Origin: Bacilli bacterium
GTDB lineage: Bacteria; Bacillota_I; Bacilli_A; RFN20; DUOF01
Direction of reading: 5' to 3'
DNA: 24,000 nt
Assembly (NCBI GenBank): GCA_045119835.1
Contig: JBGVED010000022.1
Location: 27,646 to 51,645 of the forward strand
Position numbers and translations under genes: made by a program. The notes under the pieces were generated by a model. That model saw only the letters and a program-made list of their open reading frames with translations. It made no database searches and was not told the origin of the DNA. Below, piece after piece: positions 3,193 to 21,770 of the stretch (position 1 is its first letter; every line of letters begins with the position of its first letter).

Positions 3193-4284
3193 TTATATAA
3201 ATGGAACTCCAGGTATATTTGAGTTTCCATATCTATCTTTATATAATCCTCCACCGGAAATAACTCTAGAACCAACTGCAGCTGCTGCATATGTTCCAGC
3301 TATTCTTCCCCATCTTAAAGAACCATCATCATTAGTATGTGCAGATTCTAATGCGTCCCAGAAATTGCCGCCATCTCTAACGCCTTTATATGTATCACCT
3401 ATGCCTCCAAAATAATCATCTGCATAGTCTTTCCATGAACGACGATCATTTGGTCCGCCTTCTGGTCCACTATTTGTATTGGTGTTGCTGTTTGTGTTTT
3501 TATTTTTATTGCCACTACCTGATGAATCAGTACGTGGTCCGCCATCATCGCTAAAATCAAAATTGTTTTGATTTGGTCCATCGTCTATTCTTGTTGTTTT
3601 AATTTCGTCCATAAGGGGACCAATGTCTCCAGGTTTATTGTTTCTTAAACGTTCTTGCGCAGATTTATAATTGTCTCTTTTTATAAAATCATCAATATTT
3701 TGACGTGCAGCATTTTGTGTTTTTGTTAATGCTTCTCCTTTAGGCATTGGTACAGTTTCTAGATCTTTGATTTTTTCTAAATTATTTAATGCTTTATTTG
3801 TTGTATTTACTCCTCTTATTTCTTTTGCTTTCTCTAATGCTTGTTGGTAATTCCCTACAGCATCATATTTACTTGGAGCCGATGTATTTGTTTTTGCTAT
3901 TTTTTTAGCGTTATTCAATGCTGTATCATATTCATTAACTATTTCATTCAATGCTTTTGTTGTTGTATTTGAATTTGCTATTTTTTCAGCATTGTTTAAT
4001 GCTGTTCCATGTTTTTGCACAATATTGTTTATTGATTTGGTAGTTGTATTTGAATTTGCTATTTTCTTAGCGTTAGATAATGCTGTTCCATGTTCACTGA
4101 CGATTTCATTTAATGCTTTTGTTGCCGTATTTGAACCTGCTATTTTTTTAGCGTTATTTAATGCTGTACCATATTCACCTACGAATTTATTTAACGCTTT
4201 TGTAGTTGTTTTACTGTTATCAAGCACTTGACCTGTTATTTTAGCCATATTACGACCAGCTTTTATTACGTCATCTACTGCCAT
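3193..4284 (-). CDS. Structural protein with five 27-aa tandem repeats and a Gly/Asn/Asp-rich C-terminal half
   Basis: ORF-track ORF trimmed to the ATG at 4284 (MAVDDVIK). AGGAGGTG lies 6 nt upstream, and the track's GTG start sits inside that SD. Repeats are of the form SNTTTKALNEIVxEYGTALNNAKKIAx. Confidence 0.8.
   Translation of the reverse strand: MAVDDVIKAGRNMAKITGQVLDNSKTTTKALNKFVGEYGTALNNAKKIAGSNTATKALNEIVSEHGTALSNAKKIANSNTTTKSINNIVQKHGTALNNAEKIANSNTTTKALNEIVNEYDTALNNAKKIAKTNTSAPSKYDAVGNYQQALEKAKEIRGVNTTNKALNNLEKIKDLETVPMPKGEALTKTQNAARQNIDDFIKRDNYKSAQERLRNNKPGDIGPLMDEIKTTRIDDGPNQNNFDFSDDGGPRTDSSGSGNKNKNTNSNTNTNSGPEGGPNDRRSWKDYADDYFGGIGDTYKGVRDGGNFWDALESAHTNDDGSLRWGRIAGTYAAAAVGSRVISGGGLYKDRYGNSNIPGVPFI
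3811..4218 (-). repeat. Tandem 81-bp (27-aa) coding repeats, about 5 copies
   Basis: aa 23-158 of the 3193..4284 protein: four good copies plus one degenerate copy and a partial sixth. The same periodicity produces the antisense shadow ORF 3992..4231. Confidence 0.8.
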
Positions 4285-4296
4285 AATTATCACCTC

Positions 4297-4974
4297 CTAT
4301 TTCAAGTGATCTGGTTTTTCGTCTTCTACAAAGTCTATATCGAAGATACTATCAAGAATACTTCTTTCACTATTTCCATCGTCACCTTTCATTCTAGACT
4401 TCGCTTTACGAGTCGCCATCATAGTATCTAATATTCTCTCTTTGATTTTTAAATTTCTTTCATATAGTTCTTGTGTCTTACTTATTTCTTTTCTAAAATA
4501 ATCTACACCGCTCGATTCAGATGTCCCTATAAATTCTTCTGTTATAGCACTACCTTCTTGACTCATTAGTGCTAAACATCTTTCTATCATAATCTCTGCA
4601 TTTATTAGTTCTTTTACCATTGTCCAATCTGTATAACTACTTTCATCTAGTCCAAATTCTTCTGTATAATTAGCTAGCTTTTGTTCTATCATTGTAGTCT
4701 CAAGTACACATCGTTCTCCAACAGTATCTAATCCGTATTCTAATAAACCACATGTTGCCCCATATGGACAATTACATCCTTTACATACTATAGGTATTCT
4801 ACTGTATAATCCAGTCTTGGTACTTAACATGGTCATTGCTGCTTTCTTACTTTCAAGTGCGCCCTCACTATATCCCCATGGATTACCTACAGTATCCATC
4901 ATCGCTTCAAATGCTTTACGTTTCTCAATCGCTTTTTCTTTATCAGATTTGTCTATATTATTAGTTAATTCCAT
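4297..4974 (-). CDS. Hypothetical protein with a CxxCxC...C cluster (225 aa); weak small-terminase/DNA-binding possibility
   Basis: AAGGAGG lies 7 nt upstream of the ATG at 4974. Motif IPIVCKGCNCPYGATCG, a helical middle and a basic C-terminus (ATRKAKSRMKGDD). Function is not established from the sequence. Confidence 0.75.
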   Translation of the reverse strand: MELTNNIDKSDKEKAIEKRKAFEAMMDTVGNPWGYSEGALESKKAAMTMLSTKTGLYSRIPIVCKGCNCPYGATCGLLEYGLDTVGERCVLETTMIEQKLANYTEEFGLDESSYTDWTMVKELINAEIMIERCLALMSQEGSAITEEFIGTSESSGVDYFRKEISKTQELYERNLKIKERILDTMMATRKAKSRMKGDDGNSERSILDSIFDIDFVEDEKPDHLK

Positions 4975-5415: not shown

Positions 5416-8400
5416 TTATTTAAAAATTATTTTGATTATATTTTCATTAACTCTTTCTATTACTCTGTAAGTATCAAAACCTCTTTCACAAGCTGTTGCT
5501 TTTCCATTATCATCGCATTTACAGAAGCCATTAACCTCACAAGTTCCATCGTCATATACCGAAAGAACACCTAGCATACCAATAGCGTCCCATTCAGGTC
5601 TATCTGCTCTAGAAATATATTCTTTATTTGGATCATAATCTGGATTTACAGCAAATGATTCATATTCTACTTCTTTCTCTACAGTTACATCTAAAAGTTT
5701 TTTTCTTTCATCATAAGATAATTTTTCAAATTCTTCTTCTGATATTTCAATATCTTTAAATGATTTTGTTTCTTTTACTTCTACGATGTCTTTATAAACT
5801 TTTTTTATAGGTCTATTGAATTCGTCAGTTAAATATTGCCCATGCCAATTTAAATCATGATTACCTAAAACAGCAGGATGACCTGATACTATACCTAATA
5901 GGTATTCTCCTGATTTAGCTTTTCTTATTTTATTTCCATCTAAAGTAACAAAATAACCAACTCTATCTTCAGCATCAGGATTACCATCAATCCATTCAAA
6001 ATACTCAGCATAGTCCGCTCCTGATGTTGAATAGGCAGCTTTACCCATTACTTGACCTGCATATGATATAACACACGCATTAGATCTAGTTTCTGCATTA
6101 CCATAATTTCCTGTACCATTACCTACAGTAAATGCAGCACCATTTGTCCCAGAACTACTTCCTGACCAGTTAGTATCATTGTAATGTCCTATGACAAACA
6201 TATTTTCTCCATATGAACTAGTAGTTGTACCTACACCGAATACAGATGAATAAGCTCCATTTGCTTCTGCATAATATCCTGAAGCCAATGCGTAACTTGC
6301 TTTAGCTTTGGAATAATATCCTCCCAATGCAGTAGAATACAATCCAGTAGTTATTGCTTCGTAACCCATAGCGTAACTTCCGTTACTTTGTGCTTCTGCA
6401 CAATATCCTAAAGCTACTGTATTATTAGCTATTGCTTTCGGAGAATATCCAAAAGCGACTCCACAATAACCTAAATCTCTATTTGGTTCACCATTACTGT
6501 TTTCTCCTCCTGTATCTGCGTAGTAACCTCCACATATACTATAGTATCCAAATGCTTTCGAATAACGTCCTAATGCTGTACCTTTATCCCATCCTTCACA
6601 ACCGTATCCAAGAGAATTTCCTCCATTATGACATTCGGCATAACTACCAATAGCATTACCATAAGATCCAGTACAATTAGCATAATTACCAATTATGATA
6701 TTATTATTGATACCACTTCCTGTTAAATTATTACCTGTACCTATAACTACGAGATTTGATGCATTATCGTTTGTAGTAGTACCAACTTTATTATTTTCAC
6801 CTATTGCAAAAACATATCCAGAATAAATTTCATTAAGATCACCTATTACTAATGAGCCATAACCATGTACTTTATTATTTCTACCTATTGCAACGCCTTC
6901 ATTTCCATCTACTACGTTTTGATCTCCTATTGCAGCAGATATAGCTCCTGAGACTGTATTGTTATATCCTAAATTAACTTTACTACCTTTATTACTATAA
7001 TTATCTCCACTATATTTTAATTCACTAGCTGTTGCAGTTAAATATGTACTAGGTACATAATTGCTATGTGTATGGTTTCCTGCAGCTGCATTACCTGCAC
7101 CTGTTCCTATTGTTAAATGTGTACCATGTGATGCAGGAGCAGCACCTAATTCTTCAAGATCTGGTTTGTGTAAATTTGTATAGAATCGATTCCAAGCTCC
7201 CCAGCTAGTACCTTCACCTTTTCTAAAATACATTCTACCGTCATCTAAAGTAGCGAATTGAGTTGCTTTACCGCCAGACCAAGATGTCGTATCGCCCCAT
7301 TGTTGATAAGTTATGACACCTGCGAAATTTTTACCTGAATTTGGAAGTCCTACAGTTGAAGTAGATTTAAATTCTGGATAAATACCTCTAGTGGTATATG
7401 TATTTGGTGCGCTATTCGCATTTCTTGTATCCATTGAAGTTATATAATCATGTATATGAGAACTTATAGTGCCTGTCAACTTATTTTCTATTTCAGTTTT
7501 AGTTATATCACTATTTTTTTGAGCATTTGATGGAGCATGAGCTGATTGACTATGATTGTAAGCAGTATTACCATAGTCTCCTCTATATGCAGTAGACGAT
7601 GTAGTACCTAAACTTAAATGTGTACCATGTGTACTAGCAGCCGCTCCTATAGAACTTGGTGTAATATTAATTGTTTTAGCAGCAGAACCATTAAATGTAA
7701 ATAAATTTGTCCCTTCAGTAGAACCACTATTAAGTTTAATAGTCAAATTAGTATTGACTTTGTTGGCACTAGTAGCTGCTCCTCCAGCAGAACTTGAGCC
7801 AGCATAGTTATGTGTATGATTACCAGCTGCCGCATTACTTGCACCAGTTCCTATAGTTAAATGCGTTCCATGTGACTTAGCAGCATACTTGCTAGATAAA
7901 GCTGTTCCGTTTTCAGTAAACGAAGTTGCAGTAACATTTCCTGTTACAGTTAATTTAGCATCAGTTAGTGAAGATGCATCTAATGTCATTGCATTAAATA
8001 ATGTTCCACCACTTGGAGTAAATCTCCATCTCCACATATCGTTTTGTGTTGCATCATCTGCTAAGTTAAAGTCAAAATAAGTATTAGTGCCATCTACAGT
8101 TGTACTTATAGAACCAGAATCAGAACCTTCGGTCGCAAATGCTAAACCTGTTATTCCAGTTAAAGATGTATGATTATGAGATGCAGGAGCATAAGTGCCA
8201 CTATGATTATGGCTAGTTATGGTACCAGTAAGTTTAGCTTCTATTTCAGCTTTTGTTATGTCACTATTTTTTTGTGCGTTGCTAGGAGCATGTGCTGCTT
8301 GTGAATGATTATATGCCGTATTACCGTAATCTCCTCTATACGCAGTACTAGATGTAGTACCTAAAGTTAAATGCGTTCCATGTGACTTAGCAGCATATTT

Positions 8401-8937
8401 ATCAGCTAAAGCAGTTCCCCCTTCTGTAAACGAAGTAGCTGATATAGTTCCGCTTTCATTAAAAGTCATCTTATTAGTAAAAGTAGTTGAACCTGTTCTT
8501 ATATCAAAATATAAGCTACCTCCACGATCTTGTACTCTCCAGTCAGTATAGCTATCACTATCTGATCCTCTATAGAATATTAATGAAGGACTGTCATTAG
8601 AGCCTGATGCGTATAATTTTAAATCTCCTGTAATATTTCCTCCACTTAACGGTAAATAGCTATGTGTATGAGTAGTTATATTTCCAGTTAATTTAGCTTC
8701 TATTTCAGCTTTTGTTATATCACTGTTCTTTTGTGCGTTACTAGGAGCATGAGCAGATTGACTATGTTGATAAGCTGTATTTCCGTAATCACCTCTAAAT
8801 GCATTTCCAGAACCTGTACCTAAAGTTAAATGGGTACCATGTGAACTATTTGCTTTTTTTGCCAATTCCGTATCTATATATTGTTTCGTTCTTGTCAAGG
8901 ACGTATTTAATGCATCTTTTAAACTTAATTTTGCCAT
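5416..8937 (-). CDS. Mosaic tail fibre/tail spike (1173 aa) with a C-terminal Peptidase_G2-type intramolecular-chaperone domain
   Basis: AAAGGAG lies 7 nt upstream of the ATG. There are three 61-aa modules SHGTHLTLGT..AYRGDYGNTAYNHSQSAHAPSNAQKNSDITKAEIEAKLTG..HxH and six HxH motifs. aa ~655-905 carry Gly/Tyr/Asn repeats like YadA-head/hep_Hag repeats (GYxAxAxGxxS). aa 974-982 read ADYAEYFEW, followed by DGNP..DRVGYFVTLDG (DNA 5419-6020), as in phi29-type pre-neck appendage C-termini. Confidence 0.9.
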   Translation of the reverse strand: MAKLSLKDALNTSLTRTKQYIDTELAKKANSSHGTHLTLGTGSGNAFRGDYGNTAYQHSQSAHAPSNAQKNSDITKAEIEAKLTGNITTHTHSYLPLSGGNITGDLKLYASGSNDSPSLIFYRGSDSDSYTDWRVQDRGGSLYFDIRTGSTTFTNKMTFNESGTISATSFTEGGTALADKYAAKSHGTHLTLGTTSSTAYRGDYGNTAYNHSQAAHAPSNAQKNSDITKAEIEAKLTGTITSHNHSGTYAPASHNHTSLTGITGLAFATEGSDSGSISTTVDGTNTYFDFNLADDATQNDMWRWRFTPSGGTLFNAMTLDASSLTDAKLTVTGNVTATSFTENGTALSSKYAAKSHGTHLTIGTGASNAAAGNHTHNYAGSSSAGGAATSANKVNTNLTIKLNSGSTEGTNLFTFNGSAAKTINITPSSIGAAASTHGTHLSLGTTSSTAYRGDYGNTAYNHSQSAHAPSNAQKNSDITKTEIENKLTGTISSHIHDYITSMDTRNANSAPNTYTTRGIYPEFKSTSTVGLPNSGKNFAGVITYQQWGDTTSWSGGKATQFATLDDGRMYFRKGEGTSWGAWNRFYTNLHKPDLEELGAAPASHGTHLTIGTGAGNAAAGNHTHSNYVPSTYLTATASELKYSGDNYSNKGSKVNLGYNNTVSGAISAAIGDQNVVDGNEGVAIGRNNKVHGYGSLVIGDLNEIYSGYVFAIGENNKVGTTTNDNASNLVVIGTGNNLTGSGINNNIIIGNYANCTGSYGNAIGSYAECHNGGNSLGYGCEGWDKGTALGRYSKAFGYYSICGGYYADTGGENSNGEPNRDLGYCGVAFGYSPKAIANNTVALGYCAEAQSNGSYAMGYEAITTGLYSTALGGYYSKAKASYALASGYYAEANGAYSSVFGVGTTTSSYGENMFVIGHYNDTNWSGSSSGTNGAAFTVGNGTGNYGNAETRSNACVISYAGQVMGKAAYSTSGADYAEYFEWIDGNPDAEDRVGYFVTLDGNKIRKAKSGEYLLGIVSGHPAVLGNHDLNWHGQYLTDEFNRPIKKVYKDIVEVKETKSFKDIEISEEEFEKLSYDERKKLLDVTVEKEVEYESFAVNPDYDPNKEYISRADRPEWDAIGMLGVLSVYDDGTCEVNGFCKCDDNGKATACERGFDTYRVIERVNENIIKIIFK
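7450..8844 (-). repeat. Three dispersed ~183-bp near-identical coding repeats inside the fibre gene
   Basis: Long copies at 8662-8844 (aa 32-92), 8203-8385 (aa 185-245) and 7450-7632 (aa 436-496). Shorter related copies (KSHGTHLTIGTGA.NAAAGNHTH) at 7804-7878 and 7057-7131. Identical DNA runs occur, for example AAATGCGTTCCATGTGACTTAGCAGCATA at 7859-7887 and 8368-8396. Confidence 0.85.
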
Positions 8938-9411: not shown

Positions 9412-10122
9412 ATGATGAAAACTAAAAGATATGAATGTACAGGTGAAGGTGTAGTGCGCCTTATGAAACAACATAATGTTTCTGAGGTAACACTAATCTC
9501 TAAATACCTATGTCGTTGTATTAAAACTACTACTCGTTCTATTGAGTACTTCGATTTAAGAAGTTTTTCTTGGTACGATGTAACTGTTAATATATATAGC
9601 AATGGGTATACTGAGATACATGTATTCAACAACTTAGATACTAAGTGTGAAATATGTGCTCCTGCTGTACAATACTGTGATGAATTACCTAAACCTATAG
9701 GGTTCGATAATAGATACTACTTCCATGGAACTATGGCTTATAACCATTGTACTTTAGAAGAGGGTGTACAAAGAATCCTAGATGTTAAGGATAACTCATC
9801 ATGGCAAATATGCTGCTCTACAAGACACCTTGGACCATGTGGAATCATAGTAAAAGGTGATGTCATAGCAGTGTCTAATATCGATCTATGCTCTGATATA
9901 GACGATAATGGACGCAGATACTATGATGCACGTCATTGGAGAGCAAATAGTATGGTCTATAGTCTTAAAGACATAGACAATACTAAGTGGCATCACAACG
10001 AAATAATTGTGAAAGACCACTATATAGCAGCTCTATGGGTGAGTAGAGACGCACCTGTAGCAGTTATTACAGCTATCGAAGATTTGGCTAAAAAGCTAAA
10101 TCTAAGATGGATGTATGTGTAA
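9412..10122 (+). CDS. Paralog-family protein 1 (236 aa), FHG...CST[RK]...NEII motif set (possible ART fold)
   Basis: ORF-track ORF trimmed to the ATG at 9412 (GGAGG 6 nt upstream). The C-terminal ~130 aa align by eye with the 11542..12039 protein: YFHGT / ICCSTRHLGPCGIIVKGDVIAVSNIDLCSDIDDNGRRYYD / NEIIVKD...LAKKLNL. Confidence 0.8.
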   Translation: MMKTKRYECTGEGVVRLMKQHNVSEVTLISKYLCRCIKTTTRSIEYFDLRSFSWYDVTVNIYSNGYTEIHVFNNLDTKCEICAPAVQYCDELPKPIGFDNRYYFHGTMAYNHCTLEEGVQRILDVKDNSSWQICCSTRHLGPCGIIVKGDVIAVSNIDLCSDIDDNGRRYYDARHWRANSMVYSLKDIDNTKWHHNEIIVKDHYIAALWVSRDAPVAVITAIEDLAKKLNLRWMYV

Positions 10123-10627
10123 TCCGTCAGTCCTGAGTAAGACTATAAACTACTCCCCTATATATATAGGGTATGTCTAATGCAGCCACCTATATGGTGC
10201 AGGTCACAAGCCCTGGTAAATGCAGAGTGGACATAGGAGTTAATGCTTCTCCTCTATCAAAAAGCTAACCTAACCAATTTAAAATGAGTCGGGCTGCCAA
10301 GGCCCCTTAAACTTGGCCAGTTGTCAGTACTGATAGTATGAACTGACTGGGTTTTGTTCTCAATTCTTTCCCATCAAAAAAGGAATTGTCTGCCTAATCA
10401 GGACCGACCAAGTCCCTAAACTGGCGGGTGTATAGCATTAGGCTATCCCCTATAACAAATGATAAAGGTGCATGAGATAGCTCTTCGGTTAGGGCTGGCA
10501 CTGTTCTTGGTTAGGTACCAGTACTACTACGATAGGTTGTGCCAGTGCCATACCGTCAATACATAAACCACATTGACATAGGGTTTAATGTGCTTATGTA
10601 TAAAATAAACTATATAGGGGTGTTTAT
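10123..10627 (+). ncRNA. Candidate large (~500 nt) structured non-coding RNA / GC-rich ORF-free island
   Basis: No ORF of 60 aa or more on either strand, and clearly more GC-rich than the flanking genes. Local helices: 10156-10171 (CCCTAT/ATAGGG), 10172-10177/10230-10235, 10294-10320 (CTGCCAAG/CTTGGCCAG with one bulge), 10324-10328/10342-10346 (TCAGT/ACTGA), 10392-10398/10437-10443 (GCCTAAT/ATTAGGC) enclosing GGAC/GTCC, 10496-10503/10543-10550 (TGGCACTG/CAGTGCCA), 10555-10560/10572-10577 (GTCAAT/ATTGAC). Strand inferred from neighbouring genes. Confidence 0.4.
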
Positions 10628-11416
10628 ATGTATAACAAATTAAGATCTGTAATATTATTAGCTTATAAAAAAGAGATATGTAGAAGAGAAATACTAGATT
10701 GTGATGCTAGAGAAGACATAGAAAATGATATAAATGATATCATAGAATCTAGTTTACGCAATTATGTAGATCAAAGTGAACATTTCTCTAGACCTAAACG
10801 ATTAGTATATGACGATACTTGTGCTCCTATTAATGCTTATGGTTATTATATGCATATGATAGATCTAATAACATTAGATGAAAATTTAAGATGTTTTTAT
10901 TCAATGGCTTCTCTTAATTTTCTTGAAACATTAAAAGTAAGCGTTAATACATTCTTACATGAACATCGTCATTGTCATCAATACAAAACTAACATGGATA
11001 TATTAAACCATCCACTATCTAATAAAAATAATCCTGAGTATGTATATGCAAATAGTCCTCTAGAATTAGATGCTAATAAATATGCAGATATGTATGAATT
11101 AGAAGCAGTAGAATGGATTATAGATAGTATAGAATCATGGTTTGATGTTAAATACACTAAAGATATAGTAGAAGCTGATATTAGAGATGATGTAAGAGCA
11201 GCTATAGAAAACTACTATAATAATTTACCTGAAGAAGAAATAGAAAATAGTTTAGCTGAAATGGAAGAAGAATTAGAAGAATACGAAATGACACAAGCTA
11301 TGTTATCTATGCTAGATGATGATGAAGAAGATGAAATAGAAGAAATAACAATAGATCCAGATGAAGACATAAAAGAATGGTTTAGACAATATGAAGAACA
11401 ATTTGGTGAATGGTAG
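10628..11416 (+). CDS. ImmA/IrrE-like (M78-type) HExxH zinc metallopeptidase with a hyper-acidic C-terminal tail (262 aa)
   Basis: AGGGGTG SD lies 5 nt upstream. HEHRH at aa 111-115, followed 31 aa later by E-L-D-A-N-K-Y-A, matching the family's HExxH...ExxANxFA signature. aa ~195-262 are Glu/Asp-rich and end in EEQFGEW. Confidence 0.6.
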   Translation: MYNKLRSVILLAYKKEICRREILDCDAREDIENDINDIIESSLRNYVDQSEHFSRPKRLVYDDTCAPINAYGYYMHMIDLITLDENLRCFYSMASLNFLETLKVSVNTFLHEHRHCHQYKTNMDILNHPLSNKNNPEYVYANSPLELDANKYADMYELEAVEWIIDSIESWFDVKYTKDIVEADIRDDVRAAIENYYNNLPEEEIENSLAEMEEELEEYEMTQAMLSMLDDDEEDEIEEITIDPDEDIKEWFRQYEEQFGEW

Positions 11417-11422
11417 TATATA

Positions 11423-11449
11423 GGGCTCATAATAATATGGGCCCTTTTT
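11423..11449 (+). terminator. Intrinsic terminator
   Basis: GGGCTCATA-ATAA-TATGGGCCC (9 bp with one G.U) followed by TTTTT, 7 nt after the stop. Confidence 0.75.
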
Positions 11450-11460
11450 ATGTTTTAAAT

Positions 11461-11519
11461 AATCTGTCCAGGTGTAGATGCCTGCTGATGAGTCTTTGCA
11501 AATTAAGACGAAACAGATT
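11461..11519 (+). promoter_or_regulatory. Structured 5' leader (three-way-junction-like) of the 11542 gene
   Basis: Closing stem AATCTGT/ACAGATT (11461-11467/11513-11519) encloses CAGG/CCTG (11469-11472/11481-11484) and GTCTT/AAGAC (11492-11496/11505-11509). Confidence 0.4.
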
Positions 11520-20053: not shown

Positions 20054-21133
20054 ATGAAAAAATATGAATTAGAAATGCAAATACAAAAACAAATGGAAGA
20101 ATTACAAAATAAAGAAACTGAATTACAAAATCAAAAAACTGAAGATAGAAAAACAGTAGAACAATTATGTAGCGAATGGAATTGGACATTATCAGATAAA
20201 GAAGCAACAATAGTTAAAGAAGTAGTAGTAGACAATACAGATACAGCAACAATAGAAATGCTTAGAGAAACAATAAGACAAATGAATCAAACAATAAATG
20301 ATATGAATAAAGAACAAGATGAACTATACAAATTATATTTAGAAGAACAAAGAGAAAAAGAAATATGGGCTGCTGCACATGCCGAACTAAAAGAAGTATA
20401 TGAACAACAAATGATAGATATGACATCTGAGTTCGAATTACAATTAGATGAATTAAATAAAAAATACTCTGCATTAGACAGTGAAAATGAACAATTAGAT
20501 AGAGAGATCCATGTATTAACAGGGCAAGTTGCAGGGTATGAAGCACAATTAACTAACAAGGATATAAAAATAGAATCATTAGAAAAACAAATAGCAGATG
20601 CTAAAGAAGATAAAGTAAGAGCTGAAATAATAAAAACAAAAAGTGGAGCAACAATAGAAGTAGTTGACGATCCTGATTATAATGACGTACCAGAAGAAAA
20701 ACCTGTAACTAATAATAAACCAATGAATAATCCAATAAGCTTAACTTATACTTCTTTACACGTAACTCATGATGCAATAAAAGCAATAGCACACGATAAA
20801 GCTAATGGTGTAACATTCCATTTCGTATGGAAAGCTGGACAAGAAAAACTTCCATGTTTTAGTGCAACAGGAGCTAGAGGAACTTGGAGCAGAATGAATG
20901 GTGCAGGTATGTATCGTTATGGTAAACAAATAGTTGAAGATTTCAAACAACTAGCAGAAGAAAAAATAATAAGCAAAACTAAAGATGGCAAAGTAAAAAC
21001 AACTAAAGCTAATAAACCAAACAAACCTGAAGATAAACCTGTAGTTAAAGTAACAAAAGAAGTTGCAGTAGAAACTAATGATGATCCACTTGGAAACACT
21101 GATGATATGGAGTTTGACTGCTATGACTGCTAG
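20054..21133 (+). CDS. Coiled-coil protein with the shared acidic-aromatic C-terminal peptide (359 aa)
   Basis: ORF-track ORF trimmed to the ATG at 20054 (AAGGAG 7 nt upstream). Long coiled coil, a basic Lys/Pro linker, and C-terminus NDDPLGNTDDMEFDCYDC. Confidence 0.8.
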   Translation: MKKYELEMQIQKQMEELQNKETELQNQKTEDRKTVEQLCSEWNWTLSDKEATIVKEVVVDNTDTATIEMLRETIRQMNQTINDMNKEQDELYKLYLEEQREKEIWAAAHAELKEVYEQQMIDMTSEFELQLDELNKKYSALDSENEQLDREIHVLTGQVAGYEAQLTNKDIKIESLEKQIADAKEDKVRAEIIKTKSGATIEVVDDPDYNDVPEEKPVTNNKPMNNPISLTYTSLHVTHDAIKAIAHDKANGVTFHFVWKAGQEKLPCFSATGARGTWSRMNGAGMYRYGKQIVEDFKQLAEEKIISKTKDGKVKTTKANKPNKPEDKPVVKVTKEVAVETNDDPLGNTDDMEFDCYDC

Positions 21134-21770
21134 GGAGGCAGGGGCACATACTTTCACACGAGAGCGCCAAAATTTCCCCCCTTCGGGGGAGATGGCTCCA
21201 CCCTTCGGGCTCGCCCCTCACGGGTCAGGCTCCGCTCCGCTACGCGGAACCTTCGGTTCCACGTGCTCCGCTCCGCAAAAGACAAAACCCAGCTCCGCTA
21301 CGCTGCGCGAAACCTTCGGTTTCACTCAGCTTCGCTCCGCAAAAGACAAAAGCATCGCTCACTACGTTCGCTCACACAAAGGCGTTTGTAATGAGTGTGT
21401 GCTCGCATGCGCTCGCACAAAAGACAAAAACCACAAAAGACAAAGCCTTGCACAAAGGCGTGCTTTATGGTGTTACGCCCACATGTACTGCCCCCTTCGG
21501 GGCCAGTGCCATGGGGCTAACGCTGCACAGGGCACTCAAACAACGAGTGCCTTGCACAAAGGCGTGTTTTATGATAGAGCATGCTCACTGCGTTCGCACA
21601 AAAGCGTTCGTAGTGCGTCTAGCGCGCTTGCGCTTGCACAAAGGCGTGTTCTATGGAAATACGTCTTGCTTATGCAGTCAGTATGTATGGCATTAACGAG
21701 TGCCATAACTGGTCGTGTATACGACATTGACGAGCGCCACACAAAGGCGTGATTTATGATTTTAAAAAAA
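21134..21770 (+). other. GC-rich repeat- and hairpin-dense non-coding island (structured RNA array, promoter/terminator array or replication origin)
   Basis: CACAAAGGCGTG at 21451, 21555, 21637 and 21740 (plus CACAAAGGCGTT at 21375), each followed by NTT(T/C)TATG(G/A). AAAAGACAAA at 21277, 21341, 21419 and 21435. CCTTCGG-centred hairpins at 21177-21189, 21246-21260, 21309-21323 and 21487-21507. Further hairpins at 21686-21707 and 21712-21725. CGAGAGCGC core at 21159-21167. Ends in an A/T tract (21755-21775). Confidence 0.5.

Follow-up and report, generated by a model that had tools for sequence, protein, structure and literature searches.

Organisation of the island

The window, by which we mean the whole 24,000-nt stretch of DNA analysed, contains an island at 10123-10627 that separates two ORFs on the + strand (Table 1). 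The lack of ORFs in this gap, on which an earlier note on this DNA had remarked, holds for both strands even at a floor of 40 aa, and the indels that distinguish its homologues, being of 1-2 nt and not multiples of three, argue against hidden coding. The same note had the G+C content markedly above that of the neighbours. This is clearly so relative to the downstream gene (0.276) but only moderately so relative to the upstream gene (0.365), the gap having a GC fraction of 0.422 and its core (10234-10557) one of 0.444. In 505-nt windows the gap ranks 35th of 940, against a whole-window GC of 0.328 (s.d. 0.047). A stretch at about 21.1-21.8 kb of the window is far more GC-rich than the gap.

The island is a conserved, strand-specific structured RNA. 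Many of the helices proposed earlier proved to be real: of 97 hand-built pairs, 98.5% are paired in both the window and the homologous locus L005, four of them with double-compensatory changes, while sliding the partners as a control left 34-45% paired and gave no compensatory pairs. Minimum free energy z-scores are weak (-1.8 for the + strand and -1.4 for the - strand), the nested-structure folding used being blind to pseudoknots. Homologues with compensatory changes, which had been named as a check, were found: in metagenomic phage contigs, seven sequence types have the array RNA 3' of the gene that precedes it here. The structure of the gap is thus supported by covariation, with small counts because most homologues belong to few phage lineages.

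The suggestion of a large structured non-coding RNA stands in so far as the RNA is conserved and supported by covariation, but it is not one stand-alone RNA of the GOLLD, ROOL, OLE or HEARO kind. The island is instead a composite of a twister ribozyme, a pseudoknot-rich RNA and a hairpin with a ribosome binding site (RBS). An Rfam search of 9900-10900 gave no match at E<=10 to GOLLD, ROOL, OLE, HEARO, raiA, group I or II introns, RNase P or tmRNA, and the homologous loci gave none to GOLLD, ROOL, OLE, HEARO, raiA, intron or RNase P models at E<=0.01 or E<=1, nor did the L013 gap at E<=10. Over the whole window only a hammerhead passes the gathering threshold, and a relaxed scan of 9900-10900 adds the twister and nothing else credible. 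The note could match the region to no family; its structured part nevertheless opens with 60 nt of type-P1 twister, and two further modules would fall in the coremin class.

Table 1. Features of the island and of the unit that it heads
Feature	Position	Strand	Basis or remark
Upstream flanking ORF	9367/9412-10122	+	ORF list
Element AGUCCUGAGUAAGACU-AUAAAC, directly 3' of the upstream stop codon	10129..10150	+	left boundary of conserved module
Hairpin CCCCUAUAUAUAUAGGG, immediately 5' of the predicted cleavage site	10155..10171	+	conserved among homologues
Type-P1 twister ribozyme	10174..10233	+	Rfam RF03160 covariance model
Pseudoknot-rich RNA, ~320 nt	10234-10557	+	between ribozyme and RBS of next gene
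Pseudoknot PKa: S1 GGAG/CUCC; S2 loop GCUU/AAGC after A-rich linker	10236..10265	+	S2 covariation
Long-range helix H1, 5' strand ACCUAACCAA	10268..10277	+	pairs with 10507-10516; RNAalifold
Coremin-like module 1	10291..10350	+	descriptor from published coremin rules
Module 1 hp1 GGGC/GCCC	10291-10294/10302-10305	+	loop UGCCAAG, closed by C-G
Module 1 spacer CUUAAACUUGGC	10306-10317	+	UUGGC pairs with loop GCCAA
Module 1 hp2	10317/8-10350	+	3 double-compensatory pairs, window vs L005
Hairpin AAUUCUUU/AAGGAAUU	10348..10387	+	predicted; invariant between window and L005
Coremin-like module 2	10401..10450	+	descriptor match and recurring core
Module 2 hp1 GGAC/GUCC	10401-04/10412-15	+	closed by C-G
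Module 2 loop CGACCAA	10405-10411	+	CGACCAU in relatives
Module 2 spacer CUAAACUGGC	10416-10425	+	UGG(C) pairs with loop CCA(+G)
Module 2 hp2 GGGUGUAUAGC...GCUAUCCCC	10426-10450	+	hairpin
Junction UAUAACAAAUGAUAAA, then nested hairpin (GGUGC...GCACU around AGCUC...GGGCU)	10451..10502	+	conserved
H1, 3' strand UUGGUUAGGU, within conserved UUCUUGG box	10507..10516	+	RNAalifold, mini-constructs
3' tail CCAGUGCCAUACCGU	10542..10556	+	conserved
Hairpin ACAUAA-CACAUU...AAUGUG-UUAUGU	10561..10599	+	without following U-run; window, L005, L009 lineage
Shine-Dalgarno-like UAGGGGUG and AUG (10628) of 262-aa ORF	10615..10630	+	identical in L005, L009
Downstream flanking ORF, 262 aa	10628-11416	+	ORF list
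Intrinsic-terminator-like hairpin and T-run after 262-aa ORF	11422..11455	+	consensus scan only
Type III hammerhead ribozyme	11461..11519	+	Rfam RF00008

The ribozymes at either end

The left boundary of the conserved module is abrupt, nucleotide identity between the window and L005, which is 55% in the upstream gene, reaching 88% at the AGUCCUGAGUAAGACU-AUAAAC element. This element is found in 8/8 aligned gap sequences (six distinct types) and also in L017. It can be read as an imperfect hairpin or as a promoter-like DNA motif, and mismatches in the pairing of the window and L005 make the two readings equally likely.

The twister matches positions 1-68 of the 68 in the RF03160 model with 63.8 bits (E 6.3e-14 in a 1-kb search), and the alignment has P1, P2, P4 and all core letters in place. 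Its short P3 leaves it 3.4 bits under the gathering cut-off of 67.2; the twisters of L005, L011, L014, L017 and L243 score 62.5-64.5 bits. P1 covaries among loci (UGUC/GACA, GGAU/GUCC, GGUU/GACC), while identity between the window and L005 is 98%. The ribozyme is predicted to cleave itself between U10178 and A10179, a position that we take from the twister family consensus, and would thus stay on the downstream RNA, which would carry a 5'-OH end. The CCCCUAUAUAUAUAGGG hairpin, whose sequence in L013 is another one (UCUCUGUAUA...UAUACAGAGA) and whose loop is enlarged by insertions in L011, L014 and L015, would then become the 3'-terminal hairpin of the upstream RNA. The twister resembles the rest of its subtype in its P1-P4 helices and core (UAA, GCC, GGUC.CAAGCCC, UAAA, GAG) and in its placement in a phage 5'-UTR. 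It differs in what follows: in some 30 IMG/VR phages with the same subtype a gene begins about 28 nt after the ribozyme and the array is missing, whereas here 320 nt of pseudoknots intervene. Insertion of the array between ribozyme and RBS is thus optional.

At the position of the twister in L013, HDV-like helices (P1 with G1.U, P1.1, P2 and P3) can be drawn at 4773-4826, with a C two nucleotides before P2 and P4 absent; the RF00094 match is weak, at 19.4 bits and E 1.9. The twister thus appears to have been replaced there by an HDV-like fold, which would be a swap between unrelated ribozyme classes. Should this non-homologous ribozyme be real, its presence at the site of the twister would imply selection for cleavage itself. 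The L013 fold recalls the HDV-like and theta ribozymes of gut phages (PMC10879173) in its minimal double pseudoknot, reduced P4 and predicted cleavage at its own 5' edge, but it is not tRNA-adjacent, its score is weak and the window itself has no such fold. In L245 a terminator and a promoter-like stretch take the place of the ribozyme. What is constant across L245 and the ribozyme loci is the array at the 5' end of the unit.

The 3' limit of the processed unit is set by the hammerhead. With 49.2 bits it exceeds the gathering cut-off, which is 48.5 (E 3.3e-8), has the core CUGAUGA...GAAA intact and is predicted to cut after C11468. Homologues of it are present in L005, L009, L014 and L243, and L243 has two of them between successive genes. 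The two ribozymes could in principle, with RtcB, give a circular mRNA, as their products would have 5'-OH and 2',3'-cyclic phosphate ends. This idea was rejected on account of the terminator-like site before the hammerhead, since most transcripts would probably never carry both ribozymes.

The pseudoknot array

Whatever its function, the region 10234-10557 is an unannotated, pseudoknot-dense RNA family. The first pseudoknot, PKa, is conserved as a pairing and not as a sequence, S2 being GCUU/AAGC in the window, CCCUU/AAGGG in L005, CCUAGU/ACUAGG in L011, CCUGGU/ACCAGG in L013 and GUUGG/CCAAC in L015 and L017. Since the central part of the RNA could not be aligned by MAFFT between subfamilies, helices were compared between families on hand-anchored segments; the multiple alignment of hp2 was out of structural register and was left out of the counts. 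For the long-range helix H1, anchored 8-bp mini-constructs from six sequence types, with strands chosen by eye, gave pairing in 100% of cells and changes on both sides at 6/8 pairs, a result reached by 0/500 shuffles. The segment CCUAAUC (10397-10403) is an alternative partner in H1. L015 and L017 differ from one another by seven compensatory pairs.

The loop CCCA of the 10348..10387 hairpin and an upstream UGGG may form a further pseudoknot (PKd'), read by eye. The junction UAUACAA/GAUAAAGGUG recurs in L243, L245, L011 and L242, and the nested hairpin that follows it shows compatible single changes between the window and L005. The tail reads YCAGUGCCAUAC in the window, L005, L011, L015 and L017, is shorter in L243 and is reduced to CAGUGC in L245; a search across the homologues for a consistent pairing partner for it (10542..10556) found none. 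The competition for CCAG (10317-10320) described in the earlier note is borne out, as C10317 both ends the UUGGC strand of module 1 and starts a CCAG...CUGG hairpin.

The 10561..10599 hairpin is kept in L009 with shifted pairing and is missing from L011, L015, L017, L243 and L245, where the RBS comes directly after the tail, RBS and start codon lying ~25-40 nt from it with no terminator. Since these five sequence types have no terminator after the array, it behaves as a processed 5' leader. The genes downstream differ between loci, and Pfam and PHROG searches with the flanking and downstream genes returned no function.

Coremin-like modules

In coremin, eukaryotic RNA viruses have a small pseudoknot of two hairpins at which the 5'-to-3' exonuclease Xrn1 stalls. 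On their sequence, the candidate modules at 10291-10350 and 10401-10450 fit this published Xrn1-resistant motif in its Watson-Crick form. Published coremins have an hp1 of 3-4 bp with C-G closure and a spacer of ~10 nt, in which A16-A20 are essential and U13U14 tolerant, the BNYVV register being U13U14-A15A16A17C18U19 (PMC6546385). The YGAD loop can be extended (YGNNAD), the heptaloops CGAGUAA and CGAAAAA being Xrn1-resistant (PMC10520033), and a variant, xrRNA_WCC, has Watson-Crick pairing between loop and spacer (PMC10321173).

Compared with coremin/xrRNA_C as represented by BNYVV RNA3 (GUCCGAAGACGUUAAACUAC and hp2; PMC6546385, PMC10520033, PMC10321173), both modules have an hp1 within the 3-4 bp rule with the C-G loop-closing pair and a loop of the YG...A-D kind, CGACCAA and UGCCAAG both fitting YG-NNN-AD and so extending the YG(N)nAD rule. 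The module 2 spacer follows the BNYVV register as NN-AAACU. Over 13 instances NN is CU, UA, GU, UU, GA or AU, and this variable pair corresponds to the mutation-tolerant U13U14, while the invariant AAACU overlaps the essential A16-A20. As in coremin, the loop pairs with the 3' part of the spacer, and the obligatory hp2 of free sequence lies directly downstream, 12/13 core instances having a closed hairpin 0-3 nt after UGGC, of unrelated sequences. Tandem repeats and RdRp-capsid intergenic sites are further likenesses.

The modules differ from the coremin type in having a heptaloop with ACC or CCA in mid-loop and a spacer that ends in UGG(C) and not UAC, so that positions 20-21 are GG(C) here and A20, C21 in BNYVV, where A20U abolishes resistance; membership of the coremin class therefore rests on the less-studied Watson-Crick variant. 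They differ too in their setting: DNA bacteriophages (an AT-rich lineage of ~238 kb, T7-like phages and a GC-rich phage), where there is no Xrn1, and a larger helix-clamped array behind a self-cleaving ribozyme. The coremin descriptor gave two matches in 48 kb of strand, both on the + strand of the gap, where 0.045 were expected; in 2.29 Mb of other loci there is one comparable unascertained match. L015 and L017 have the full array and no module that passes the descriptor, so that members of the family can do without coremin modules. The H-type pseudoknots of ordinary frameshifters fail to stall Xrn1 (PMC10321173), and the non-coremin modules of the array may therefore serve another purpose.

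Distribution

The core of module 2, some 25 nt long (GAC-CGACCAW-GUCC-NN-AAACUGG(C)), is found in identical form in L005, L011, L013, L243 (two copies), L245 and L242, in the T7-like phage contigs L244 and L247-L249 and in the sobemo-like RNA-virus contigs L128, L167/L246, L176 and L251. The phages that share it include a GC-rich one. The hosts of these RNA viruses are presumed to be eukaryotes. Their cores lie between the RdRp and capsid genes, a site from which xrRNAs, coremin among them, have been reported (PMC10520033, PMC12397905); a -1 frameshift or readthrough signal was considered for this site and rejected, as there is no upstream slippery site, though the capsid frame is -1. Apart from chance matches, which lie in or at the end of coding sequence in higher-GC genomes, the core is absent from 185,579 cellular genomes. 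Its spread over phages and RNA viruses would fit a mechanical function that is independent of the host.

Among GenBank phages, BLAST returned no near relative of the window, the gap being matched through its twister only, and no matches to the L245 and L011 RNAs. Scans of IMG/VR guided by the proteins of the two flanking genes were negative, and full-text literature searches by sequence returned primers only. Scans with 15-mers for the tail and the hp1 core gave over 100 mostly chance matches and were informative after filtering for co-occurring motifs.

Possible function

The island is best read as a processed 5' leader, its end set by the ribozyme and its tandem roadblock pseudoknots guarding the mRNA downstream against 5'-to-3' decay. 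We favour this reading as a real possibility, if one still somewhat short of probable. The twister would cut at U10178/A10179 and detach the upstream RNA with its terminal hairpin, leaving a downstream RNA whose 5'-OH begins inside the compact ribozyme fold. Behind it would stand H-type pseudoknots in series, joined by A-rich 'UAAAC' linkers and clamped by H1, the two putative Watson-Crick-type coremins among them. Such an array may mechanically block whatever moves along RNA from the 5' end, namely the RNase J exonuclease and possibly scanning RNase E or Rho, and so would stabilise and insulate the mRNA of the 262-aa gene, which would end at the terminator and hammerhead (11422-11519). What the analysis shows is the identity of the ribozymes by covariance model, the conservation and covariation of the RNA, its match to the motif and its place in the genome; self-cleavage, exonuclease resistance and the stabilising effect, and with them the function of the island, are inferred. 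The 5'-OH product of the glmS ribozyme, studied by Collins et al. in 2007, is reportedly degraded by RNase J1. In vitro, bacterial RNase J1 is stopped by an xrRNA from a flavivirus (PMC5760640). A simple roadblock does not need H1, the junction UAUACAA..GAUAAAGGUG or the tail CAGUGCCAUAC.

A stand-alone trans-acting RNA (a scaffold, protein sponge or tRNA/tmRNA-like molecule), freed at its 5' end by the ribozyme and at its 3' end near the tail (...GUGCCA), is an alternative that we regard as rather unlikely. At ~380 nt including the ribozyme it would belong to the same broad category as ROOL, GOLLD and tmRNA. A long-range helix closes the molecule, which has four to six pseudoknots, a density for which we know of no parallel but tmRNA. 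The strongly conserved tail includes GCCA, the RNA accompanies different downstream genes, the motif region of L242 ends in an intrinsic terminator ahead of the next gene, and the window and L005 have an extra hairpin between tail and RBS. The array also shares with tmRNA and the upstream pseudoknot domain of TMV its consecutive H-type pseudoknots with A-rich linkers, and with tmRNA a long-range closing helix (compare P2), but it differs from them in having no tRNA-like domain or tag ORF and in its place in a 5' leader, not at a 3' end. The tmRNA/tRNA-like identity was accordingly rejected: ARAGORN finds no tRNA or tmRNA, the array has no Rfam match at E<=10, no T-arm, acceptor pairing or conserved tag ORF can be drawn, no T-loop was seen on inspection, and a ribozyme kept at the 5' end is incompatible with an acceptor stem. 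More generally, five sequence types run from tail to RBS without a terminator or recognised processing site, and the window gap has no terminator-like site. The constant position directly 5' of an RBS could point instead to translational control of the downstream gene, by a leader that recruits or blocks ribosomes or responds to a ligand or temperature. A coremin motif stalls ribosomes during scanning and enhances frameshifting (PMC10520033, PMC10321173), RNA-virus UTR ribozymes promote translation initiation (bioRxiv 10.1101/2024.05.16.594327), the two possible 5' partners of the H1 3' strand could make a switch, and in RNA viruses the core lies 60-90 nt before the capsid AUG. We nonetheless think it distinctly unlikely, since bacterial ribosomes do not scan, the phage coremin modules are ~200 nt from the start codon, no conserved pairing that sequesters the Shine-Dalgarno sequence was found, the downstream genes are unrelated, with no evident common regulatory logic, and the same core in unrelated hosts (bacteria and presumed eukaryotes) argues against a host-specific ligand or factor. 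No riboswitch class matches; a superficial 'CCAUAAAC' likeness to fluoride or preQ1-like riboswitches has no covariance-model match behind it.

The unpaired nucleotides of the core are so conserved across phages and RNA viruses, in a host-independent distribution, that GAC-CGACCAW-GUCC-NNAAAC-UGGC with its hairpin could be imagined as a new small self-cleaving ribozyme that cuts up the leader or excises short RNAs. Pistol, hatchet and twister-sister were discovered through co-location with known ribozymes, and the core is tightly associated with twister, hammerhead and HDV-like ribozymes in operons where ribozyme-based mRNA processing is seen throughout. It lies in T7-like intergenic regions, where RNase III sites normally act, is present in L243 as two perfect copies 81 nt apart, and has a pistol-like connectivity, a hairpin loop that pairs downstream with a second hairpin after it. 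Even so this is very improbable. The biochemically characterised, non-cleaving coremin is a much closer match that explains the same conserved positions, and cutting within a helix-clamped leader would destroy a conserved long-range architecture. Pistol, hatchet and twister-sister themselves are rejected, their models giving no match and their junctions differing, and the linker between pseudoknot strand and hp2, where pistol cleaves, is missing. A DNA-level element (a replication origin, packaging site or promoter/operator array), of which the earlier note had mentioned packaging and origin sites, could draw on the repeated modules of ~35 nt and unusual composition, the conserved promoter-like sequence at the left edge (10129-10150) and the sharp break in window-L005 identity at the upstream stop codon, as at a module junction. 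It is scarcely credible, and the DNA reading is not needed: compensatory changes preserve RNA pairs including G.U, which would be A.C on the opposite strand, two covariance-model-supported ribozymes bracket the unit on the same strand, descriptor matches are on the + strand only, the core also occurs in RNA-virus genomes, and sigma-70-like promoter sites are not in excess.

If the protected-leader reading holds, phages may encode natural xrRNAs, a coremin-type tandem behind a ribozyme giving a cap-like, decay-proof mRNA 5' end, an idea that we put forward tentatively. To our knowledge xrRNAs have so far been described from eukaryotic RNA viruses only. RNase J1 has been called an enzyme that xrRNAs 'never naturally encounter' (PMC5760640). 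An xrRNA native to phages would carry the concept over to bacterial DNA viruses and make it a cross-domain viral strategy, with RNase J (or scanning RNase E, or Rho) as a natural target, and the same ~25-nt RNA device would be at work in phages and RNA viruses. The ~320-nt helix-clamped array would be a new RNA family built around a coremin-type motif. The array would share with flaviviral and plant-virus class 3 xrRNAs the proposed protein-independent block to 5'-to-3' exonucleases (for the flaviviral kind also seen with RNase J1 in vitro; PMC5760640), the tandem copies and the intergenic location in Solemoviridae-like viruses. Class 3 xrRNAs have a coaxial P1-P2 stem, a large apical loop with a T-loop L2B and a pseudoknot to a 3' strand (PMC12397905); the array has no three-way junction, no such stem and loop and no sequence similarity to either group, and a class 3 identity was rejected on direct reading, as the modules have 7-nt loops and no L2B hairpin.

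The twisters and hammerheads of phage operons, long puzzling, would on this account gain a role in setting RNA ends that are then protected. Structured 5' ends that protect or insulate a message are familiar from the 5' stabilisers of the B. subtilis phage SP82 and ermC type and from the synthetic RiboJ. The SP82 and ermC-type stabilisers are single hairpins or ribosome stalls, whereas the leader described here joins a natural ribozyme to an array of several pseudoknots and would supply compact parts for the stabilisation of bacterial mRNAs.

Composition of the gap

The gap at 10123-10627 contains no ORF of at least 40 aa on either strand, so that its description as ORF-free is borne out. Its GC content (0.422, with 0.444 across 10234-10557, against a window average of 0.328) ranks 35th among 940 505-nt windows. 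The earlier note's claim that it is richer than its neighbours holds strongly for the downstream gene (0.276) but only moderately for the upstream gene (0.365). The folding energy of the gap is unremarkable by itself (z = -1.8 on the + strand, -1.4 on the - strand), nested-structure folding being blind to the pseudoknots that dominate the array RNA. The earlier note matched the region to no family. The relaxed Rfam scan shows its first part to be a known ribozyme, a twister, whilst 10234-10627 gave no tRNA, no tmRNA and no further Rfam family at E<=10.

Features of the gap and of other parts of the window
Feature	Position	Remarks
Upstream ORF, 236 aa	9367/9412-10122	Gap's strand
Conserved sequence AGTCCTGAGTAnGACTATAAAC	10129-10150	Directly 3' of upstream stop codon
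Conserved hairpin	10155-10171	
Type-P1 twister, full-length	10174-10233	Relaxed Rfam scan: 63.8 bits, E 6e-14; gathering cut-off 67.2
Pseudoknot array	10234-10557	No Rfam family
Pseudoknot PKa	10236-10265	Directly 3' of ribozyme
Long-range helix H1	10268-10277/10507-10516	
Module 1	10291-10350	
Hairpin	10323-10347	Holds 3/4 window/L005 compensatory pairs
Second CCUAA(Y)C and (G)GUUAGG strands	10397-10403/10487-10493	
Module 2	10401-10450	
Downstream ORF, 262 aa	10628-11416	Gap's strand
Terminator-like hairpin	11422-11445	Between 262-aa ORF and hammerhead
Type III hammerhead	11461-11519	Next intergenic gap; Rfam scan of whole window at gathering threshold
366-aa ORF	3193-4293	81-nt tandem repeat x4 at 3883-4209
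1173-aa ORF (-)	5416-8937	Tail-fibre or pre-neck-appendage-like, with Peptidase_G2 intramolecular-chaperone domain
GC-richest stretch	21130-21760	GC 0.50-0.57, against 0.33 overall
Sole ORF of that stretch	21078-21752	Translation not protein-like
63-nt tandem repeat	21229-21366	

Ribozymes and proposed transcript processing

Each of the two ribozymes, twister and hammerhead, is an ordinary representative of a known class. From the family consensus we take the cuts to fall at U10178/A10179 and 3' of C11468, and each ribozyme presumably remains on the RNA 3' of its own cut. Type III hammerheads also occur in related loci (L243 1976-2034 and 2729-2787; L005 4046-4104; L009 977-1035; L014 2722-2780). 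Since they lie in successive intergenic gaps, these phages appear, from the placement of the predicted ribozymes, to divide polycistronic mRNAs into gene-sized pieces.

The AGTCCTGAGTAnGACTATAAAC element has the same position in L005, L011, L013, L014, L015 and L017, its hairpin being imperfect at some loci; the GACTATAAAC part resembles the promoters of single-subunit RNA polymerases. Identity between the window and L005 jumps abruptly at this element, from 55% to 88%.

Structure and covariation of the array

Relatives for the proposed covariation analysis were found. The closest comparison is with L005, which is 89% identical to the window in the RNA (with indels of 1-2 nt) and 90% in the downstream gene but only 55% in the upstream gene. 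In a hand-built structure of 97 pairs, pseudoknots included, 98.5% of cells are paired, with four double-compensatory pairs and five compatible single changes; sliding the partners by 1-3 columns leaves 34-45% paired and no double-compensatory pair. Loci L015 and L017 show seven compensatory pairs between them. MAFFT fails for the middle of the RNA across subfamilies, but the same elements nonetheless recur.

The loop-to-downstream pairing of PKa varies across homologues from GCUU/AAGC to CCCUU/AAGGG, CCUAGU/ACUAGG, CCUGGU/ACCAGG and GUUGG/CCAAC. In H1, whose strands were chosen by hand, six of eight anchored pairs covary with 100% pairing, which none of 500 shuffles reaches; a second candidate 5' partner is present. 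Between PKa and H1 lie three to five additional H-type pseudoknots, each built as S1 (3-5 bp, GC-rich), loop, S1', NN-UAAAC, S2'. A strict automatic search finds three such modules in the window RNA, compared with about 0.5 per shuffle (maximum 2). A junction, UAUACAA...GAUAAAGGUG, and a tail, YCAGUGCCAUAC, are also conserved. Both strands of H1, 5' CCUAA(Y)C and 3' (G)GUUAGG, are present twice, as they are in L243. The four strands can pair either as nested double helices or in combinations that exclude one another, and could form a conformational switch.

Relationship to the coremin motif

Judged from sequence, the layout of the core module is that of coremin (xrRNA_C), the smallest element with which BNYVV and many other RNA viruses stall Xrn1. 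Coremin has the consensus GUC-CGAA-GAC-GUUAAACUAC followed by a second hairpin (hp2), with a first hairpin (hp1) of 3-4 bp and C-G closure, a YGAD loop that tolerates central extension (YGNNAD; the heptaloops CGAGUAA and CGAAAAA are Xrn1-resistant), and a spacer in which A16-A20 are essential and U13U14 tolerant (PMC6546385, PMC10520033, PMC10321173). Both phage modules have such an hp1. Their loops, CGACCAA/U and UGCCAAG, fit YG-NNN-AD, and in the spacer two variable nucleotides (NN) precede an invariant AAACU, in register with coremin; as there, hp2 lies immediately 3' and is kept in structure rather than sequence. Watson-Crick coremin variants pair loop with spacer, and here the pairings are CCA(G)/UGG(C) and GCCAA/UUGGC. 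Unlike coremin, positions 20-21 are GG(C), not AC.

A coremin-rule descriptor matches the 24-kb window twice (10291 and 10402), both times on the + strand and in the gap, against 0.045 matches expected; 2.29 Mb of other loci gave a single unascertained pseudoknot-positive match. The L015 and L017 arrays have no module that satisfies the descriptor; in the family, coremin modules are thus common without being obligatory.

One array module carries the invariant core GAC-CGACCAW-GUCC-NN-AAACUGG(C), which was scanned for across public sequence collections. It occurs in four settings: AT-rich phages; L242, a GC-rich phage with a terminator at the end of the region; marine T7-like phages with a single-subunit RNA polymerase gene (L244, L247-L249); and sobemo-like RNA viruses encoding a protease and a GDD polymerase (L128, L167/L246, L176, L251), between the RdRp and capsid genes. 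Matches in 185,579 cellular genomes were only chance ones, lying inside coding sequence or at its end in higher-GC genomes. A hairpin of unrelated sequence begins 0-3 nt past the core in 12 of 13 instances. In the T7-like phages the core lies in an intergenic region of ~400 nt, a few small ORFs past the RNA polymerase gene and upstream of phage-promoter-like TCATTTCACTATAGGACC and the gene after it. T7 has RNase III sites at the corresponding position. L243 has two perfect copies 81 nt apart (1304-1407), and the segment between them forms its own hairpin-loop pseudoknot (GAUCGU...ACGAUC).

Natural phage xrRNAs did not come up in full-text literature searches. As the array also lacks an Rfam family, what is new here is a candidate xrRNA motif of coremin type, present in DNA phages as an array and apparently ribozyme-coupled.

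Locus layouts

A BLAST comparison of the window with GenBank phages gave no near relative, and protein-guided scans with the two flanking genes gave none in IMG/VR. Contigs from Logan, ENA and JGI, one of them 238 kb long, encode the flanking proteins in exact or 53-95% identical form. Behind the 236-aa gene, L005/L006, L011/L012 and L015/L016 have gaps of 493-511 nt, and in L017 the RNA fills a similar-sized stretch ahead of the next start codon; all these loci have the twister. Locus L014 has the twister without the long RNA. Two further AT-rich phage contigs came from a motif scan of metagenomes: L243, with a twister, a ~290-nt version of the RNA and hammerheads between each of the following genes, and L245, with no ribozyme and a terminator and promoter-like stretch 5' of the RNA. 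Downstream genes vary among loci. In L017 the ORF after the array (2257-2347) opens with an EF-Tu N-terminus (30 residues); either the phage encodes EF-Tu or this short contig is chimeric.

About 30 phage contigs (L256-L286; IMG/VR and MT835795.1) have nearly the same twister subtype without the array, in most cases 27-32 nt (about 28) upstream of a gene, an 86-aa ORF; L259 has two twister copies 116 nt apart. Thus, the ~320-nt RNA is an optional module between a 5' ribozyme and the RBS.

In L013 the gap is 379 nt, and exactly at the twister's expected site (4771-4836) a minimal HDV-like (theta-like) fold can be drawn with every helix (P1 with G1.U, P1.1, P2 and P3, a C lying two nt 5' of P2), at a weak covariance-model score of 19.4 bits (E 1.9). 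If the fold is real, one ribozyme would have been exchanged for a non-homologous one, and two unrelated classes at one site would imply selection for cleavage as such.

Possible functions

We are highly confident that the ribozyme and the structured RNA element are genuine. The comparisons establish a 5' ribozyme backed by its covariance model, a pseudoknot array that is conserved and covaries, two modules of coremin type, an RBS directly continuous in relatives, and a hammerhead and terminator-like hairpin at the far end. The large structured RNA that had been suspected is a structured RNA, but a composite, probably processed leader rather than a GOLLD- or ROOL-like giant.

Twister cleavage would free an upstream RNA with the conserved hairpin at its 3' end and leave a leader whose 5'-OH may stay buried within the ribozyme fold. 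RNase J1 acts on the 5'-OH RNA that glmS ribozyme cleavage produces, and RNase E scans from the RNA 5' end. The array could act as a mechanical block against 5'-to-3' attack; bacterial RNase J1 is stopped in vitro by a flaviviral xrRNA (PMC5760640). Rho, another 5'-to-3' translocase, might also be halted by the roadblock. A protective function for the leader is our tentative preference, at a little under even chances.

That the array acts in trans as a free ncRNA is unlikely, at perhaps one chance in five; in L011, L015, L017, L243 and L245 an SD and start codon follow some 25-40 nt past the conserved tail, with no terminator between. The same continuity speaks for a translational control element, a reading that we think rather less probable still. 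A new self-cleaving motif is improbable, and a DNA element, set against the compensatory pairs, is hardly credible.

Other features of the window

The 21130-21760 stretch holds at least five GC hairpins capped by UUCG and the repeats GCAAAAGACAAAA (four copies) and CACAAAGGCGUGnUUUAUG (five copies). Pfam, Rfam and tRNA searches of it gave no match, and it may be a second, larger repeat or non-coding element.
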